Below are positions 3,701 through 29,578 of a stretch of DNA of 40,176 bases, piece by piece. Both the position numbers and the translations under genes were made by a program. This DNA comes from a virus (taxonomy: Duplodnaviria > Heunggongvirae > Uroviricota > Caudoviricetes): the IMG/VR virus record IMGVR_UViG_2698536646_000014; one strand, written 5' to 3'. How positions within the stretch are numbered: position 1 is the first letter of the stretch; every line of letters starts with the position of its first letter. The notes under the pieces are model-generated. The model was given only the letters and a program-made list of their open reading frames with translations. It was not told the DNA's origin and searched no databases.

Positions 3701-4580
3701 TCAGTGGCCTTTGTTGATGCCGTTCCTGCGCTGGAAGACGCCTCCTGAGCCGAAGTCGCGGCCTGTCCGGCTGACGTGCTGGCTGCACGCGCTGAGCCTG
3801 CAGCATCAGTCGCATGGGTTGCCGCCTCACGGGCAGATGTGCCGGCATCACTGGCTGACTTCTTCGCGGCTGCCGTGTTCTGTGCCACCGCGGACGCGTT
3901 ACGCGCCACCTCTTCCACCATCAGTTCAAAACGGCGCAGAGCCTCCGGACGGGCATCATCCTCCGTCATGGCACCGAGAAAATCATTCAGCGTACCGGGT
4001 CGGGAATCTTCATACACGGTGATGGTCCCGGCATGTGACGGCGGGAATCCTTCCACCAACAGAATAACGCTGTACTGACCGTACTCAANNNNNNNNNNNN
4101 NNNNNNNNNNNNNNNNNNNNNNNNNNNNNNNNNNNNNNNNNNNNNNNNNNNNNTTGCCGCCTCACGGGCTGATGTGCTGGCATCGCTGGCTGATTTCTTC
4201 GCGGCTGCCGTGTTCTGTGCCACCGCGGACGCGTTACGCGCCACCTCTTCCACCATCAGTTCAAAGCGGCGCAGTGCCTCAGGACGGGCATCATCCTCCG
4301 TCATGGCACCGAGAAAATCATTCAGCGTACCGGGTCGGGAATCTTCATACACGGTGATGGTCCCGGCATGTGACGGCGGGAATCCTTCCACCAACAGAAT
4401 AACGCTGTACTGACCGTACTCAACGTCCATGCTGTAACGCCCGGCTTCATCCGGATTTTCTGAGGCCAGCGTGTTCACCACCACCGTGGTGCTGTTACGT
4501 TTTGCTTTCAGCTGGATTGTGCAGTTCTGTACCGGTTTTCCTGTGCCGTCTTTCAGTACACCTGAAATCTTTACTGCCAT
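797..4580 (-). CDS. stf: side tail fiber protein Stf, interrupted by two scaffold gaps; reading frame across gaps not recoverable
   Basis: N-terminus [26 protein letters not shown] and C-terminus ...[31 protein letters not shown] match lambda Stf. Ala/Ser-rich shaft with phage-tail-fibre repeats. True start is the ATG at 4580 (track start 4586 is GTG), preceded by GGGGTG. Confidence 0.85.
1067..1570. other. assembly gap (run of N) inside stf
   Basis: Continuous n characters; the translated X-run in the ORF track is an artefact. Confidence 1.
2520..2860 (-). repeat. about 3.3 tandem copies of a 132-bp unit inside stf, encoding a 44-aa tail-fibre repeat
   Basis: Direct repeats gtgctgtt(g/a)gt(t/c)gcact... 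seen three times; protein repeat [44 protein letters not shown] x3. Confidence 0.85.
4089..4153. other. assembly gap (run of N) inside stf, flanked by near-identical duplicated sequence
   Basis: About 265 bp on each side (about 3822-4088 and 4154-4420) are roughly 97% identical, consistent with unmerged contig ends or collapsed paralogous stf copies. Confidence 0.9.
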
Positions 4581-4644: not shown

Positions 4645-5244
4645 TCAGAATTTATAACCGACACCCACGATGAAACCGTCAGTGCGCCAGTCGCCACTGC
4701 CGGAGCCTTCATAAGCAATATCAATGGCCACGGATTCGGTCGGGTTAAACTGCACGCCAGCTCCCCACGCCAGAGACGTGTTGCTGTGGCGACCGTCATC
4801 ACTTCCGGTCAGCACATCGTGCGTTTTCCCCTTGTTGTCAGTTACGCGAAGATAATCCCCGGAGAAAGTCGACACACGGCTGTAAGCCACACCCGCCATC
4901 GCATACGCGCTGAACCATTCATTCACGCGCACAGACGGCCCCGCCATTACGCTGAACCAGCGGTTACGAACGGAATCTTCATGCCAGCGGGTATCGCTGT
5001 AACGGGTCAGCTGGCGATTCTTGTCTCCTGCATAGCTGAATGACGTCACCAGCCCCAGTGTGTCCGTAAACTCATAACGGTATTTCACGTTAATCCCGTT
5101 CAGATCATCACTGCCGGGGACGTTCGTCGAGGCATGAAGATACCCCGCGCTCAGCGTGGACTGATGTTCAGACGCCCATGCAGGCGCACCGGATACGGCC
5201 AGACAAATGGCTGCGGACAAAATTGCTGCACAAACTTTACGCAT
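4645..5244 (-). CDS. lom: outer membrane protein Lom (Ail/Lom family)
   Basis: 199-aa ORF with signal peptide (MRKVCAAILSAAICLAVSGAPAWA) and beta-barrel ending ...GVGYKF; matches lambda Lom. RBS GAGAGGT. Confidence 0.9.
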   Translation of the reverse strand: MRKVCAAILSAAICLAVSGAPAWASEHQSTLSAGYLHASTNVPGSDDLNGINVKYRYEFTDTLGLVTSFSYAGDKNRQLTRYSDTRWHEDSVRNRWFSVMAGPSVRVNEWFSAYAMAGVAYSRVSTFSGDYLRVTDNKGKTHDVLTGSDDGRHSNTSLAWGAGVQFNPTESVAIDIAYEGSGSGDWRTDGFIVGVGYKF

Positions 5245-23329: not shown

Positions 23330-23479
23330 ACCCGCTCCAGAATGTTTTAAACATGCATCTCGCGAACAACTTTAGGCAAACGGTGTTAGTGATGAACAAA
23401 AAACAATCAAAATCGACACCATAAAAACAAAACCACTGTAATATCAATCTATTACAGTGGTGGTGATGACGAATGAAAT

Positions 23480-23530
23480 TTCAAAAACTAGCCTTTTTCC
23501 GCGACGCTCCCGCCCCGTGGCAGGCCACTC
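23480..23530 (-). other. cos site (cosN-like); cosB probably between it and the Nu1-like start
   Basis: Minus-strand ACGGGGCGGGAGCGTCGCGG, versus lambda cosN ACGGGGCGGCGACCTCGCGG as recalled, about 170 bp upstream of the small terminase start; followed by AT-rich stretch. Confidence 0.7.
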
Positions 23531-24144
23531 CACCGGGAGGACCCGTCAGCCTGACAGACATGACGAACGTCTGATACAGCGCCTTGCATGAATGGCATCG
23601 GGATAATCCAGAAAGGAATAGCATCGTGCCCACAAGAATCTGTGTGAGTATCCTGTTTCTTCCACCCCCGCACAGGACTGGCGAGCATGAGGGACAAACC
23701 CGCGAACCATAAACGCGGTAAAAACCCGGTGTGCATCGTTTTTGATTATTCCCGCACACTCTCGCAGAAGGAGTTCCCCGTCGGGCTACGGTCTCTGTTA
23801 ATACGGGAATACGGCGACGATACAGCGCATGATGTGTCAGGCTTGAATACCTTTATCCGTTAAAAGGGATATCAGTTAAGTTATCCCGTGTAGGGTATAA
23901 GCCATTATCAAAGCCACTCTGTAGGGAGTGGCTTTTGTAATGGCAATAAAAAGCCCCGCGAATGCGAGGCTAAATCCAGGTATTTTTAATGACTGGCTCT
24001 TATTTCAACGCAGCCCCTTACCGCGCGCCAGATGCTCAACTTCAAGCATCAGCAATGAGATGTTTAATCTGGATTCACTCCAGAAGTGATCACCACCCTG
24101 TCTACAGAGCCAAATGTGAAGGATGATGAGTAAAATTATCGCTA

Positions 24145-24612
24145 TCATCGAAGGCATTGCGTCCTGATATATTCCTGAAGCGTTCTCAGTGCTGTCTGGT
24201 CTCTGATGATTCCGTCCCGGATACCGAGAACGTTTCGTCCAGCAACTGGAGAGAGTTCGACGGTGGCATCATTGCCCATGCCGGAGGCGCTGGAGGTTTC
24301 GGCTGAGGATGGCACAGAGCATTTTCCTTTGACGAGCACCCGACCACCATTATCAAGCTTGCGCCGAAGAGCATCATTTTCAGCTTTCGCATCAGCCAAC
24401 TCCTTCGTGTATTTAGCATCGAGTACATCAGCAGCACGCTGGCGTTGCTGCATGTCAGTAATGGTGGCGGTCGCCTGCTTCAGCTCACTGACTTTTTTAT
24501 CACGCTGTTCTTTGTAGGCGATGGCGTTATCACGGTAATGATTGACCGCCCACGACAGGCAGACGATGATGCAGATAACCAGAGCATAAATAATCGCGGC
24601 GACTCTGCTCAC
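24145..24612 (-). CDS. Rz: i-spanin Rz
   Basis: [34 protein letters not shown]... matches lambda Rz N-terminus; GTG start overlapping the endolysin stop (GTGA). Confidence 0.85.
24186..24392 (-). CDS. Rz1: o-spanin Rz1 (lipoprotein) embedded in Rz in an alternative frame
   Basis: [21 protein letters not shown]... with lipobox VVGC and proline-rich segment PKPPAPPAW, like lambda Rz1. Confidence 0.8.
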
Positions 24613-25197: not shown

Positions 25198-25414
25198 TCA
25201 GTGACTTAAGGTTGTGATTCCGGAGGAGTCTTCAGAGAACCAGTAATTCTTCCTGGTAGCTTTCCTTTGTAGGTTATCCAAACATTCTGCGCATCTANNN
25301 NNNNNNNNNNNNNNNNNNNNNNNNNNNNNNNNNNNNNNNNNNAAACCAGTACCCGGCACTACCTGCTGAGGTGCCATAGGCGACACCCGTTGTTAACTTA
25401 TCCATGGATTTCAT
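25198..25414 (-). CDS. S: pinholin (S21-like) with dual-start motif; interrupted by scaffold gap, C-terminal frame unresolved
   Basis: N-terminus [24 protein letters not shown] matches S21 (dual starts at M1 and M4); GAGGTG RBS; remainder lost in the N-run at 25298-25342. Confidence 0.6.
25298..25342. other. assembly gap (run of N) inside the holin gene
   Basis: Continuous n characters. Confidence 1.
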
Positions 25415-25481: not shown

Positions 25482-26534
25482 TTATTTCCCCACCAGCTCG
25501 TTTATCTCTTTCACTGTCTGATTAAACCGCTCTGACTCAAGCTCAACACCTAAGGCCCGACGCCCCAGCGCCATTGCTGCTTTTATTGTGGAACCGGATC
25601 CCATAAAAAAATCAGCAACCAGATCACCTGGTCGACTACTGGCATTGATTATTTGCCTGAGCATATCCGCCGGTTTCTCACACGGATGTTTCCCCGGGTA
25701 GAACTGAACGGGTTTATGCATCCAGACATCGGTATAAGGCACGGAGACTGATACGGAGAAATAGCGCCGGAGAGATTTAAACTCATCCAGCAATTCAGAA
25801 TATTTACGATTCAGTGAATCATAAGATGCCACCAGCTGGTGGTGTGGTTGTTCCAGTTGTTGTTCCTGAAACTTCTCTGCCGCTATACGGGAAAACAGTG
25901 CCTGTAACTTCCGATAGTCAGCCTCATTCGGCAACTGCCACTGACTGGCACCAAACCAGTGGGAAACCATATTTTTCTTACCTGTGGCTTCGGCAATTTG
26001 TTTTGCCGTTATACCCAGTTCGGCACGAGCATCCCTGAAATACGATATCAGCGGTGCCATTATGTGCTGTTTGAGTTCCCTTTCTTTTGCCGCATAGCCG
26101 TCACTTTTGCCGCGATATGGCCCCTGGTAATGTTCAGCAAACAGAACGCGCTCTGTGGCAGGAAAATATGCGCGCAGACTTTCTTTATTACACCCATTCC
26201 AACGTCCGGACGGCTTCGCCCAGATGATATGGTTAAGCACGTTGAAACGTTCACGCATCATGATCTCAATATCAGATGCCAGGCGATGCCCACAGAACAG
26301 GTAAAGGCTTCCGGCAGGTTTCAACACCCGCCAGAACTGGGCCAGACAGTGGTCCAGCCACTTAAGGTAATCTTCGTCCCCTTTCCACTGATTGTCCCAA
26401 CCGTTGGGTTTCACCTTGAAGTAAGGCGGATCGGTAACAATCAGGTCAATGGAATCATCAGGCAGGGACTGAATAAAATGCAGGCAATCAGCGTTGATTA
26501 AATCAACACTGTTTATTTTTACAGTATTTTTCAT
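25482..26534 (-). CDS. orphan DNA methyltransferase (beta-class amino-MTase; probably N6-adenine)
   Basis: 350-aa ORF with motif IV DPPY near the N-terminus ([11 protein letters not shown]) and motif I FxGxG near the C-terminus (DFFMGSGST); no adjacent restriction gene. Confidence 0.8.
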
Positions 26535-26684: not shown

Positions 26685-26888
26685 TTACTGGCAGCGTCTG
26701 AATTTATTCCCGTACCCGCCGTTATCCTTCGCCAGACCCGCCAGAACTAACTGAGTCAGTATTAACTGGCACCGGGCTTCGCTTACTCCGGTAGTTCTCG
26801 TCATCATGCGTGGCGTTACCCACTTGTCAGCAGGTAAGAAATGAAGGACTGCGGCGGCGGTTTCTGTCATATCTTGCTGTTTTAGCAT
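26685..26888 (-). CDS. small hypothetical protein (possible winged-helix DNA-binding)
   Basis: 67-aa ORF from internal ATG with AAGGGA RBS-like sequence; no recognisable homology. Confidence 0.3.
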   Translation of the reverse strand: MLKQQDMTETAAAVLHFLPADKWVTPRMMTRTTGVSEARCQLILTQLVLAGLAKDNGGYGNKFRRCQ

Positions 26889-27005
26889 GTCTTTTTCCCT
26901 TCTGGTTAACATGACATACCAATAACTCTTGTCTAAAAAGCCAGCAAGATAAAAAGTCAGTATTCACGACCACCAGCGTGTTTACTGTACTGCACCAAGT
27001 TTACG

Positions 27006-27034
27006 GGTACAAAAAACCCGCTCAGTGGCGGGTT
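27006..27034 (-). terminator. terminator hairpin, second copy of the tR'-like element, downstream of the lipoprotein gene
   Basis: ggtacaaaaaacccgctcagtggcgggtt, near-identical to the element at 27682-27710 (2 mismatches in 29 bp). Confidence 0.6.
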
Positions 27035-27111
27035 GCTATCACAGCTATATATTTACTTATTATGCCGTTACTAACATTTATCTTCGACATATAATCGAAA
27101 ACAAGGTTTGC

Positions 27112-27537
27112 TTAAAACTCTGCTTTCATTTTATCCGGGAATTTTTTATTTGCAGCATAATAACTACCAAGTACATAAGCGTTCATTTGCTGCTCTACAT
27201 CAACCCGACATGCCGCACTAGAACAAGCTCCACTGATAAGCCCAAAAGAACTCCCTTTAGCAGAGAGATCAGCTTTGATTTCCTCTACAGTGTTTTTCCC
27301 CATAGCAACTACACACCCTGTCACAATATATCTAGCTTTCACATCATCCATGCTAAGGATAGTAGTTTTCGCAATTTTGCTGTATCCATCATTTTTATAA
27401 ACATCCATGGCAAACGCACGGCAATCTGTATAATACGGACTTGCTTTAACTTGCGAATACTCAGGTAATTTCATACCTGCACAACCAACTAAACAAAAAC
27501 CTATCGCTGCTATTAATACCTTTTTCATTACAGTCAT
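27112..27537 (-). CDS. lipoprotein of unknown function (moron)
   Basis: Signal peptide and lipobox (MKKVLIAAIGFCLVGCAG); AT-rich codon usage unlike the surrounding phage genes; flanked by duplicated terminator hairpins. Confidence 0.7.
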   Translation of the reverse strand: MTVMKKVLIAAIGFCLVGCAGMKLPEYSQVKASPYYTDCRAFAMDVYKNDGYSKIAKTTILSMDDVKARYIVTGCVVAMGKNTVEEIKADLSAKGSSFGLISGACSSAACRVDVEQQMNAYVLGSYYAANKKFPDKMKAEF

Positions 27538-27681
27538 AACCTAGAAGCATCATTGAAACTAATTTATTAAATAACCATCGAGTTTCTGGAATACAGACGT
27601 TAACCATCTCTCCAAAATCTAAAAGATAATAAGAAAAAATGTTTAACGCACCAATCCATTTCATAGTTTCATGAGACATCA

Positions 27682-27713
27682 GGCACAAAAAACCCGCTCA
27701 GCGGCGGGTTTTT
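27682..27713 (-). terminator. tR'-like intrinsic terminator (bidirectional) downstream of the late promoter
   Basis: acaaaaaacccgc-tcagcg-gcgggttttt; A-run and T-run on both sides. Confidence 0.7.
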
Positions 27714-27756
27714 GACATTTACCAACGGTAGACATACAAGGCCCATCGTTGAGAAA

Positions 27757-27785
27757 ATCTTATCCATATTTTTTGAAAAATGCAA
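27757..27785 (-). promoter_or_regulatory. pR'-like late promoter downstream of Q
   Basis: Minus strand TTGCAT - 17 bp - TAAGAT, about 35 bp after the Q stop and about 60 nt before the terminator hairpin. Confidence 0.55.
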
Positions 27786-27816: not shown

Positions 27817-28569
27817 CTATCTTGTCACTTTTCTCAATTGCGATTCAGCATACGCTTCTTCCTGCCAGCACTTTGTAACCAGTTTATTAATAACGTCTGC
27901 ATATCCTTTGTACCACTGATAATCCGTCAGGTCCGGTACCAGTTTCTGGACATGATGCCGCGCCAGTGTGGTTGGTAAACGGCTAAACCGGTTGCCATTG
28001 CAACGCCCACAAATCTTATAAACAGGCACACCATGAAGCCGGGTTCTTTTTTCATCCAGGACAATACCTTTACCCTTACACCCTCTGCACGCTGTGCTGA
28101 CTTCTCCCTTACCATGGCAATGCTGACATAGTTCCTTCACCCACTCTTCCTTGATAACAGATTCCCCGCTTCTGGAGTGTTTCACCACTTCGCGCAATAC
28201 ATTATGAAATCCAGTACCAGCACAATGCTCACAGCGAGCCTTACTTGCCGCAGACCTGGAATAATCAGCAAAGGCAAAATTCACAAGGTAAGGGATGATC
28301 TGTAACCGGGTTTCTTCACTCAATTTGTTCAATGTCGGGTTATCCAGTGCCATCGCGTAATTGAGCAGACCTTCAATCGCAAATTGAGGATCCTGAACAC
28401 CAACTTTTGCCAGGAATAAGGCAAACCCAAGCGGTGCTTTCGACTGCACCATCCCCTGCGCAGCCATCACATCCGTAATCGTTAAACCACCTGAGCCTGT
28501 CGCCGGTGCGTCATCGCTCAATTTTGGAGATTTTGGGGAGTAATATTTTGGTAAGGCTTCAAGGTTCAT
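27817..28569 (-). CDS. late-gene antiterminator Q (Cys-rich, phage-82 / QuuQ-like type)
   Basis: 250-aa ORF from the ATG preceded by GGAGAA; several CxxC pairs (CEHCAGTG, CQHCHGKG, CRGCKGKG, CGRCNG); located just upstream of the pR'/tR' pair and lysis genes. Confidence 0.7.
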   Translation of the reverse strand: MNLEALPKYYSPKSPKLSDDAPATGSGGLTITDVMAAQGMVQSKAPLGFALFLAKVGVQDPQFAIEGLLNYAMALDNPTLNKLSEETRLQIIPYLVNFAFADYSRSAASKARCEHCAGTGFHNVLREVVKHSRSGESVIKEEWVKELCQHCHGKGEVSTACRGCKGKGIVLDEKRTRLHGVPVYKICGRCNGNRFSRLPTTLARHHVQKLVPDLTDYQWYKGYADVINKLVTKCWQEEAYAESQLRKVTR

Positions 28570-28582
28570 GCTCGTTCTCCAC

Positions 28583-29578
28583 TTACGCCAATACGCCAAT
28601 TGCCAGCGCACGATCGATAAAACGAAATATCAGCTCCAGCTGGGAGCCATACTTCTCTTCAAATGCCACGGTATCCGCATGCAGCTCGTCGTGATGCTTT
28701 CTGCACAAAGGCAACACAAAGAGGTCATGCGCTTTTGTACCCATTCCACCCTGACCGTGGCCTATCAGGTGGTGGGGATCATCAGCAGGCTTTCCACAAC
28801 ATGCACACGGCTGTGTCTTAACCCAGCGCGTGTACTTTTCATTAACCCAGCGGCGGCGTTTTGGGCGTAACATAAAAGACTCCGGCGACTCCGGATCCAC
28901 TTTCAGCGCCAGCACCTTTTTTGCCTTATCCTGGATGATGCTGGTGGCAGGAACCGAAGGCACAAGGTCACTTTCCCGGGTGACAGACGGCACAACAGGC
29001 TTTGGTAATCTCAGTGCCTTACGGGCTGCACTTTCCGGTAAGGCATCCGCCAGGTCATTACGAATCAGCCACCAGCACAGTTCCGGCATTGTCACAACGT
29101 GACTATCATCAAAACCGAGATCCCGACGCACAACAGACAACACCCAGCGGGCACAGTTATCCGTTGCCATTGATTCCAGCCGTTCCGTGAACTGATCGCG
29201 CAGCTGGTTATCGCAGTGCCAGCACAGACGGATTGCGCCCGGAGCGTGTCGCATTGTGGTCATGTTCTCGCTGTGCCAGTCGGAATGAGGCCACTGGCAG
29301 CCTTTTTCACGAAGTAACCAGCTTTCAAGACATTCCACGCCACCAGCACGACGGATCACTGCCTCATTGCGGAACACGGCCCGAACGGCAGGATCATCCG
29401 CCAGCGGTTGTGATGCCGCCGGAACGGCACCACTGGCGAAAGATGAATAACGTTCCGGCTCAGGCTCCAGCAGAACACGCCCCTGCATAAACAGGGGCAT
29501 CAGCTCTGAACCTGGCCTGAACAATACGATCCCCATACGCGGGGCAATTTCAGGGGTCAGTAGTGCTCTCACGGTCAC
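28583..29578 (-). CDS. DUF968-like (YdfU-like) protein with C-terminal HNH/NinG-like Cys/His motif
   Basis: 331-aa ORF ending ...PCACCGKPADDPHHLIGHGQGG...CRKHHDELH; immediately upstream of Q. Start uncertain (GTG at 29578 or internal ATG). Confidence 0.55.
   Translation of the reverse strand: MTVRALLTPEIAPRMGIVLFRPGSELMPLFMQGRVLLEPEPERYSSFASGAVPAASQPLADDPAVRAVFRNEAVIRRAGGVECLESWLLREKGCQWPHSDWHSENMTTMRHAPGAIRLCWHCDNQLRDQFTERLESMATDNCARWVLSVVRRDLGFDDSHVVTMPELCWWLIRNDLADALPESAARKALRLPKPVVPSVTRESDLVPSVPATSIIQDKAKKVLALKVDPESPESFMLRPKRRRWVNEKYTRWVKTQPCACCGKPADDPHHLIGHGQGGMGTKAHDLFVLPLCRKHHDELHADTVAFEEKYGSQLELIFRFIDRALAIGVLA

Follow-up and report, generated by a model that had tools for sequence, protein, structure and literature searches.

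A lipoprotein gene between two near-identical terminators behind the antiterminator gene Q: a probable moron of a lambda-like Escherichia coli prophage

Is a small AT-rich gene that lies between two near-identical terminator hairpins, directly behind a late antiterminator gene, a piece of lysogenic-conversion cargo or simply the first gene of the late operon? The question is raised by positions 27006-27713 of the viral record IMGVR_UViG_2698536646_000014 (Caudoviricetes), whose whole stretch of 40,176 nucleotides (nt) is termed the window below. An initial annotation had read this region, which encodes a lipoprotein, as a moron, a cargo insert downstream of the antiterminator gene Q. Our analysis supports that reading: the region is probably a moron, a self-contained 676-bp accessory cassette directly downstream of the terminator tR′ in the late operon of a lambda-like E. 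coli prophage. Morons are recognized by extra DNA between neighbouring genes, a deviant base composition, a promoter and terminator of their own and expression from the repressed prophage (PMC3594210). They are a known kind of element, and the cassette described here is already present, unremarked, in published phage genomes.

The repeat pair, tR′ and the cassette

A repeat search in the window revealed a 29-nt direct repeat pair at 27006-27034 (copy B) and 27682-27710 (copy A), with 27/29 identical positions (93%) and a start-to-start distance of 676 nt. The initial annotation had given the coordinates and two mismatches of this duplicated element correctly. A degenerate 26-nt pattern has two sites in the 40-kb window, the two repeat copies, and was matched in 0 of 100 dinucleotide shuffles. 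The genes between 24.6 and 30.4 kb are all on the minus strand, so that transcription runs from high to low coordinates, and the copy that had been called upstream is 27682-27710 when read in this direction. On the minus strand both copies read as intrinsic terminators (AACCCGCCRCTGAGCGGGTTTTTTGTRCC) of the form AACCCGCC(G/A)CTGAGCGGGTTTTTTGT(G/A)CC, each with a 7-bp G+C stem, a 6-nt loop and then six T. Copy A has a predicted folding energy of -16.5 kcal/mol and copy B one of -13.3 kcal/mol. Copy B (27034-27015) was the best-scoring site in a terminator scan of 24.5-29 kb; copy A is missing from the list of that scan and was recognized through the repeat, its fold and the annotation of phage Ayreon, whose authors labelled both hairpins as terminators. 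The features of the region, in the order of transcription, are:

27817-28569, minus strand: gene of the antiterminator Q, 250 amino acids (PF03589, 5e-54; phrog_127; named Q or ydfT in matching records)
27742-27785, minus strand: pR′-like late promoter (direct comparison with lambda 44,540-44,600)
27682-27710, minus strand: terminator copy A, tR′ (AACCCGCCGCTGAGCGGGTTTTTTGTGCC; repeat, pattern search, fold, Ayreon annotation)
27538-27681, minus strand: non-coding cassette leader (the overlapping open reading frame (ORF) 27461-27688 was judged spurious)
27626-27654, minus strand: candidate cassette promoter, predicted, TTGGTG-17-TATTAT (8/12 consensus positions)
27112-27537, minus strand: lipoprotein gene, 141 amino acids, starting MTVMKKVLIAAIGFCLVGC (phrog_4748, ratio of nonsynonymous to synonymous substitution rates (dN/dS), lipobox)
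27006-27034, minus strand: terminator copy B (AACCCGCCACTGAGCGGGTTTTTTGTACC; repeat, terminator scan, fold, Ayreon annotation)
26685-26912, minus strand: small winged-helix-like ORF, 75 amino acids, homologue of SfV orf47 (phrog_331, weak MarR/TrmB matches)
25482-26534, minus strand: N6/N4 DNA methyltransferase, a resident late-region gene (PF01555, 2e-42; PADLOC MTase_II)

Along this strand a DUF968 gene (28583-29578) is followed by Q, a 106-nt spacer, copy A, a 144-nt leader and the lipoprotein gene, and then by a 77-nt trailer, copy B, the 75-amino-acid ORF, the DNA methyltransferase, holin, lysozyme and Rz/Rz1. The accessory unit of 676 bp consists of the leader, the lipoprotein gene and a terminator. 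Its composition deviates strongly from that of the neighbouring genes: the GC content of the cassette (27035-27681) is 0.357, compared to 0.474 in Q, 0.491 in orf47 plus methylase and 0.514 in the whole window. The AT-rich insert of the initial annotation is thereby supported, also by its absence from phages with the same flanks. SfV and vB_EcoM-720R4 share Q, spacer, orf47 and methylase with the window, and they contain no cassette and exactly one hairpin. What these two phages lack in the alignment is the cargo together with one repeat copy, and their junction falls inside the repeat; the orf47 homologue, the first resident gene past the insertion point, directly follows their single terminator. 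The unit therefore separates two genes that are neighbours in related phages; the site is filled in the window, mEp460 and Ayreon and empty in SfV and 720R4, and the unit is not universally present with the same boundaries. Copy B, read from 27034 to 27006, would provide the cassette with a terminator of its own; it is predicted to close the cassette and to shield the downstream late genes.

The identity of copy A was derived from its surroundings. The antiterminator encoded directly upstream (PF03589) is homologous to lambda Q, with 34% identity in BLASTP (E 1e-41), and has an extra insertion of about 48 amino acids with additional CxxC pairs of the zinc-finger type (DnaJ-type CXXCXGXG match, 6e-9). 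The spacer that follows compares with lambda pR′ as listed:

-35 element: TTGCAT (27785-27780) in the window, TTGACT in lambda
Spacer: 17 nt in the window, 17 nt in lambda
-10 element: TAAGAT (27762-27757) in the window, TAAATT in lambda
Discriminator: 6 nt in the window, 6 nt in lambda
Start region: CTCAACGATGGG in the window, CTCAACGATGGG in lambda, identical

The stretch AACGATGGG at 27750-27742 (minus strand) is shared without change by the start region of lambda pR′. The lambda transcript has at its start the element AACGAT, which causes a sigma-70-dependent pause, where Q loads. The arrangement predicted here, a lambda-type promoter with a -10-like pause element and then an intrinsic terminator, would by analogy place the start of pR′ transcription near 27750 and yield an RNA of about 65 nt that ends in the T-tract near 27687. 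The hairpin of copy A lies about 40-65 nt downstream of this putative start (+40 to +65). Because the spacer between Q and terminator aligns position for position with pR′ and because Q is a homologue of lambda Q, copy A is, on sequence grounds, tR′, in agreement with the position that the initial annotation had assigned to the upstream copy. The pR′ spacer region is nearly invariant across phages with this Q, and the lambda start region CTCAACGATGGG has been kept at pR′ despite the 48-amino-acid insertion in Q. Just 5′ of copy A, the bases 27711-27723 (minus strand) read GGTAAATGTCAAA in the window and in 11 viral contigs, which supplies an A-tract mirroring the T-tract of copy A and thus the shape of a bidirectional terminator; mEp460, Ayreon and SfV have GATAAGATTTAAG at this position.

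The ORF 27461-27688 that overlaps the leader (phrog_37626; a shorter form is annotated in Ayreon and in the Stx2k phage) was rejected as coding sequence. In the homologous leader of Salmonella prophages the matching frame stops after five codons, and since the frame is not conserved it is probably no gene. A search for structured RNA in leader and terminators gave no Rfam match at the gathering score; the sub-threshold ones were terminator look-alikes. One sub-threshold match, full length to the Salmonella small RNA STnc130 (26 bits, gathering score 55, E 0.25), covers 26907-27043 on the plus strand, antisense to the late operon, and takes in copy B as well as the beginning of orf47; it probably reflects chance or distant prophage homology.

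Elsewhere, too, the window has the genes of a lambda-like E. coli prophage, among them those of a cI-like repressor, a terminase, a J-type tail tip and a homologue of Lom. The latter, a full-length Ail/Lom outer-membrane protein homologue in the tail-fibre region (4645-5244, minus strand; PF06316, 1.5e-122), gives this prophage a second classical moron. Between the Rz and terminase genes of the window (23330-24145) there is no bor-like gene. Runs of N occur at 1067-1570 (504), 4089-4153 (65), 7565 (1) and 25298-25342 (45); the last of these breaks the holin region just downstream of the methylase and leaves ORFs there with runs of X.

The lipoprotein and its homologues

The predicted protein starts with MKK-VLIAAIGFC-LVG-C19, a basic and hydrophobic signal sequence ending in the lipobox L-V-G-C with Ala at position +2. 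Each of the eight homologues (8/8) fits the lipobox pattern G+LPPv2, PROSITE PS00013 or both. Position +2 is Ala in seven homologues and Ser in one, and none has Asp. In E. coli, lipoproteins without Asp at +2 are sorted to the outer membrane. The lipoprotein assignment of the initial annotation, which hung on a functional signal peptide, holds at the level of prediction: signal peptide and lipobox are canonical and conserved in all homologues. Four further cysteines (C39, C75, C105 and C110) are invariant and would fit a disulfide-bonded periplasmic domain. The AlphaFold2 model (pLDDT 79, pTM 0.75) consists of five helices and predicts an all-alpha fold. The dN/dS values of 0.05-0.13, with dS near saturation, indicate purifying selection, and this together with the conservation of the protein shows that the gene is real.

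The family is small, with 9 clusters in 5.8 billion sequences and 8 representatives in 1.84 billion sequences in an exhaustive hidden Markov model search. The exact protein sequence occurs on at least 1,000 contigs, where it is always named hypothetical or, automatically, 'lipoprotein'. Searches for a function in Pfam, NCBIfam and PADLOC gave no match, and PHROGs returned only phrog_4748, a family of unknown function. A profile search of the PDB gave matches at chance level, no informative fold match was obtained, and homology in sequence or fold to Bor, Cor or Llp was not detected. The literature yielded no paper on cassette or lipoprotein and no transcriptome of a lysogen with this cassette; mEp460 turned up only as a prophage-typing label. 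Our guess, by analogy with Bor, Cor and Llp, is that the protein may serve in an envelope-modifying lysogenic conversion such as receptor masking, superinfection exclusion, or protection from envelope stress or serum.

Homologous genes occur in several other settings. In Salmonella prophages a gene with 74-76% identity follows directly on a Q of another kind, the DUF1133 type. Their homology to the window covers 27714-27104, that is hairpin A, leader and gene, and their cassette is followed by a different hairpin (AACCCGCATTGCGCGGGTTTTT), a truncated methylase and holin. Behind the cassette only the C-terminal third of the DNA methyltransferase is left (about 72% identical; locus L004, 6479-6808, and loci L055-L065), as a vestige of this late-region layout. 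Another homologue, 66% identical, is encoded on the opposite strand, with the Rz lysis gene on one side and the terminase genes on the other; bor occupies this position in lambda. In prophages of S. diarizonae the lipoprotein gene is located beside VapBC in the early region, and a Buttiauxella plasmid with phage replication genes also carries a homologue. On this plasmid (L005, 6446-6745) and on a viral contig (L062, 3437-3736) a second conserved small lipoprotein gene follows about 10 nt behind; its product has 99 amino acids and a mature start of CAFPDKDGDFG and is absent from the cassette of the window. The pair suggests an ancestral two-gene lipoprotein operon. In two Serratia genomes (L013 and L014, 3004-3441) a 55-58% identical homologue was found on the core chromosome between emrB and a methyltransferase/trxC cluster, and a third Serratia genome has a homologue beside a LysR regulator and a hydrolase. 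The homologues at emrB lie outside any prophage and could be the source of the phage gene. The lipoprotein gene is a mobile accessory gene. Given homologues on the strand opposite to lysis and terminase genes, in the early region of a prophage and in Serratia chromosomes, its expression cannot generally depend on a late operon.

A model for the cassette as a moron can be outlined from these features. In the lysogen, constitutive pR′ transcripts would stop at copy A, the cassette would be transcribed from its own weak sigma-70 promoter TTGGTG-17-TATTAT, and copy B would stop this transcript ahead of orf47, methylase and lysis genes, a second terminator that would keep cassette transcription out of the lysis genes. 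After induction, Q-modified RNA polymerase would read through both copies, and the lipoprotein would also be the first late product. The protein would be exported by the Sec pathway, lipidated at Cys19 and, with Ala and not Asp at +2, sorted by the Lol system to the outer membrane, with a small helical domain facing the periplasm and held by two disulfides. Recombination through the short terminator homology and longer flanking homology probably brought the cassette in and accounts for its exchange or loss.

Distribution of the cassette and origin of the repeat

The cassette region is 98-100% identical in mEp460, Ayreon, 15 Stx2c phage records and many E. coli chromosomes. In a census of 5,426 complete E. 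coli genomes the cassette core was present in 215 (about 4%), always at full length and with 97.8-100% identity. A near-contiguous junction of Q and orf47 was counted in up to 257 genomes of this sample, a number that includes sites with a different, shorter insert such as the one in the avian pathogenic E. coli (APEC) O18 strain. Many more genomes matched only one half of the junction, and these alignments end at the hairpin. Among the carriers are the ST131 strain JJ1886 and APEC, O157 and O111 strains, as well as all 15 Stx2c phage records of the collection. In the published phages with the cassette, mEp460 and Ayreon, the gene is always labelled hypothetical. Every E. coli-type cassette on viral contigs that has upstream DNA in the locus follows this same Q. 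Downstream of copy B the contigs vary and continue with orf47 plus methylase, with holin directly or with other modules.

The same junction accommodates other cargo. Phage Lys8385Vzw shares Q and spacer with the window; its hairpin is a loop variant, directly behind which come unrelated DNA and the Shiga toxin (stx) genes stx1AB, and the homology of the phage to the window ends at 27687. The APEC O18 strain has at the Q/tR′ junction an ORF of 176 amino acids with its own, different terminator ACCGCGTTCTCGCGGTTTTTTT (L010, 2683-3213). By eye this ORF lacks a signal peptide, although no family or signal-peptide search was made for it; the T-tract of the tR′ hairpin just ahead of it is disrupted. 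In another strain (locus L011, 3271-3717, plus strand) an unrelated 148-amino-acid lipoprotein (MNKITVLLLSATIISGC...) lies on the opposite strand behind a different short Q of 121 amino acids, just ahead of the same terminator and orf47 module. In phiSTEC1575-Stx2k the order is Q, terminator, lipoprotein gene, terminator, a winged helix-turn-helix ORF, a helix-turn-helix ORF, tRNA genes and stx2k, and in the Stx2c phages Q, terminator, lipoprotein gene, terminator, orf47, methylase and stx2c. The initial annotation had compared the site to that of stx in Stx phages, a parallel borne out by stx1AB behind the terminator of this very Q and by the cassette between Q and stx2.

Several observations speak against the cassette as an inserted moron. 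It is co-oriented with the late operon and directly follows tR′, so it could be a purely late gene. The candidate promoter is a weak match (8/12) that was missed by a standard scan, and its position is conserved between E. coli and Salmonella only and not in more distant homologues. No sequence or fold match backs any particular function of the lipoprotein. Furthermore, the hairpin is a stock part of 24 nt with 130 occurrences in 40 left- and 36 right-flank clusters, hence the identity of the two copies is no proof of recombination, and an insertion is indistinguishable from repeat-mediated deletion in the 'empty' phages. Under the late-gene explanation the cassette would lack its own promoter, and the lipoprotein would come from pR′ alone, with Q read-through of tR′, and act in the lytic phase, either by blocking the phage's own receptor like T5 Llp, so that progeny are not lost on debris, or by modulating lysis. 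Orientation and place as the first gene past tR′ fit this explanation, as do the weak promoter and the Salmonella homologue, which again lies directly behind a Q, albeit a different one, and ahead of holin. Yet copy B would be purposeless for a pure late gene, and no late promoter is possible for the homologues that are antisense to lysis or terminase genes, in the early region, on the phage-plasmid or in Serratia chromosomes. The Salmonella leader, moreover, has kept a -35/-10 pair, TTGGTA-18-TATCAT, at an equivalent distance from the gene despite a diverged spacer sequence. We therefore regard a purely late gene as unlikely. A TTGGTR -35 element was also considered as a family-wide promoter signature and rejected, as its positional conservation is confined to the E. 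coli and Salmonella cassettes.

Concerning the repeat, the claim of an insertion by recombination at the terminator was the weakest of the initial annotation. In its favour, homology breakpoints cluster at the hairpins (27714, 27691, 27687, 27034 and 27011), although others lie elsewhere (26970, 26900 and 26713). On the other side, the hairpin occurs in at least 40 unrelated contexts, the cargo may bring its own copy, and deletion between the repeats in 'empty' phages would give the same picture. The exact 24-mer AACCCGCCRCTGAGCGGGTTTTTT has at least 130 sites in the sampled viral contigs (loci L067-L186) of enterobacterial phages, most of its flank clusters being unrelated to this region. At least three kinds of sequence upstream of the hairpin lead into the same downstream module; two of them adjoin known Q genes and are for this reason probable pR′ leaders. 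Left and right modules have been re-assorted at the hairpin. This would suit a role as recombination junction, but as the hairpin is a stock part its duplication does not prove recombination at the terminator. The cargo could have arrived with its own common terminator, by illegitimate recombination or within a larger module, and the near-identity of the copies would then be coincidental. The loop CRCTGA is indeed the commonest of at least 74 variants, present in 13 of 120 sampled AACCCGC-N6-GCGGGTTTTTT hairpins, and the Salmonella cassette and the APEC O18 cargo end in different terminators. However, the match between the two copies of the window continues for 5 nt behind the T-tract (GTRCC), a feature absent from unrelated contexts, the empty sites hold one copy with the junction inside the repeat, several independent mosaic junctions fall within a few bases of the hairpins, and phages differ in how they combine the loop and tail variants (G or A); coincidence is thus rather doubtful. 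Somewhat more credible, though still on the unlikely side, is an ancestral cassette in this Q lineage, with SfV, 720R4 and the other 'empty' sites as secondary deletions. The 29-nt direct repeats are suitable substrates for precise deletion, SfV continues past its single terminator with GTGCCTTGATGT, resembling the first leader bases GTGCCTGATGT, and the diversity of the cassette is similar to that of the flanking Q. Against this, the AT-rich composition and the occurrence of homologues in unrelated settings point to a foreign origin, the genomes with a near-contiguous junction (up to 257) are no fewer than those with a filled one (215) and the same site holds other cargo. A transposable or miniature mobile element with the repeats as target-site duplication was rejected as extremely unlikely. 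A discrete insert between direct repeats would suit it, but the unit contains no transposase or integrase and no terminal inverted repeats (the hairpin being the only inverted pairing), known target duplications are much shorter than 29 nt, the empty site already has the repeat as its terminator, and the census found the 647-bp core only in this prophage context.

The moron reading thus remains the preferred one. A speculative extension, which we put forward with considerable reserve, is that the tR′ hairpin serves as a homology anchor for swapping Q/pR′ and cargo modules (lipoprotein, stx1 or other ORFs) from hairpin to hairpin by short-homology recombination, with precise gain and loss, and that the lipoprotein represents a new receptor-masking or envelope-protecting family. 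Current concepts are unchanged by the cassette, which adds one uncharacterised envelope protein and one well-documented junction. It is a clean natural example of accessory-gene slotting behind a lambdoid late antiterminator, in the slot of the Shiga toxin genes. Stx2c and Stx2k phages have both terminators and the cassette placed between pR′ and stx2, where they could influence toxin expression.

Comparison with known systems

Morons of lambdoid phages were reportedly defined by Juhala and Hendrix, with HK97 gene 15 and lambda bor and lom as examples. The cassette resembles them as extra DNA between genes adjacent in relatives, with deviant composition, its own predicted terminator, a candidate promoter and an envelope protein as product. 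It differs from them in that its terminator is a near-copy of the resident tR′. Lambda Bor is an outer-membrane lipoprotein as well, and a homologue of lambda Lom is encoded in the same prophage (4645-5244), but the cassette lipoprotein is related to Bor, Lom and gp15 neither in sequence nor in fold. In lambda, bor is found behind Rz and on the other strand; the cassette, by contrast, follows tR′ directly and has the orientation of the late operon.

The pR′ - 6S RNA - tR′ unit of lambda is matched by a homologous Q (34%), a collinear promoter, an identical CTCAACGATGGG and an intrinsic terminator. The terminated RNA would, however, be about 65 nt long and so shorter than the 194-nt lambda 6S RNA, Q has the extra zinc-finger insertion, and a second terminator copy follows 676 bp further on.

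With the stx operons downstream of Q, pR′ and tR′ the cassette shares the slot, stx1AB lying behind this very Q allele in Lys8385Vzw, and in Stx2c and Stx2k phages it is located on the path from pR′ to stx2. Unlike stx cargo it encodes no toxin, has no accompanying tRNA genes and consists of a single small gene with a dedicated second terminator.

The favoured functional analogy is with the receptor-blocking proteins Llp of T5 and Cor of phi80, N15 and the mEp phages, which would resemble the cassette product as small, disulfide-stabilised outer-membrane lipoproteins of phages. The mature cassette protein is about twice as large, is predicted to be all-helical and has no detectable homology to them.

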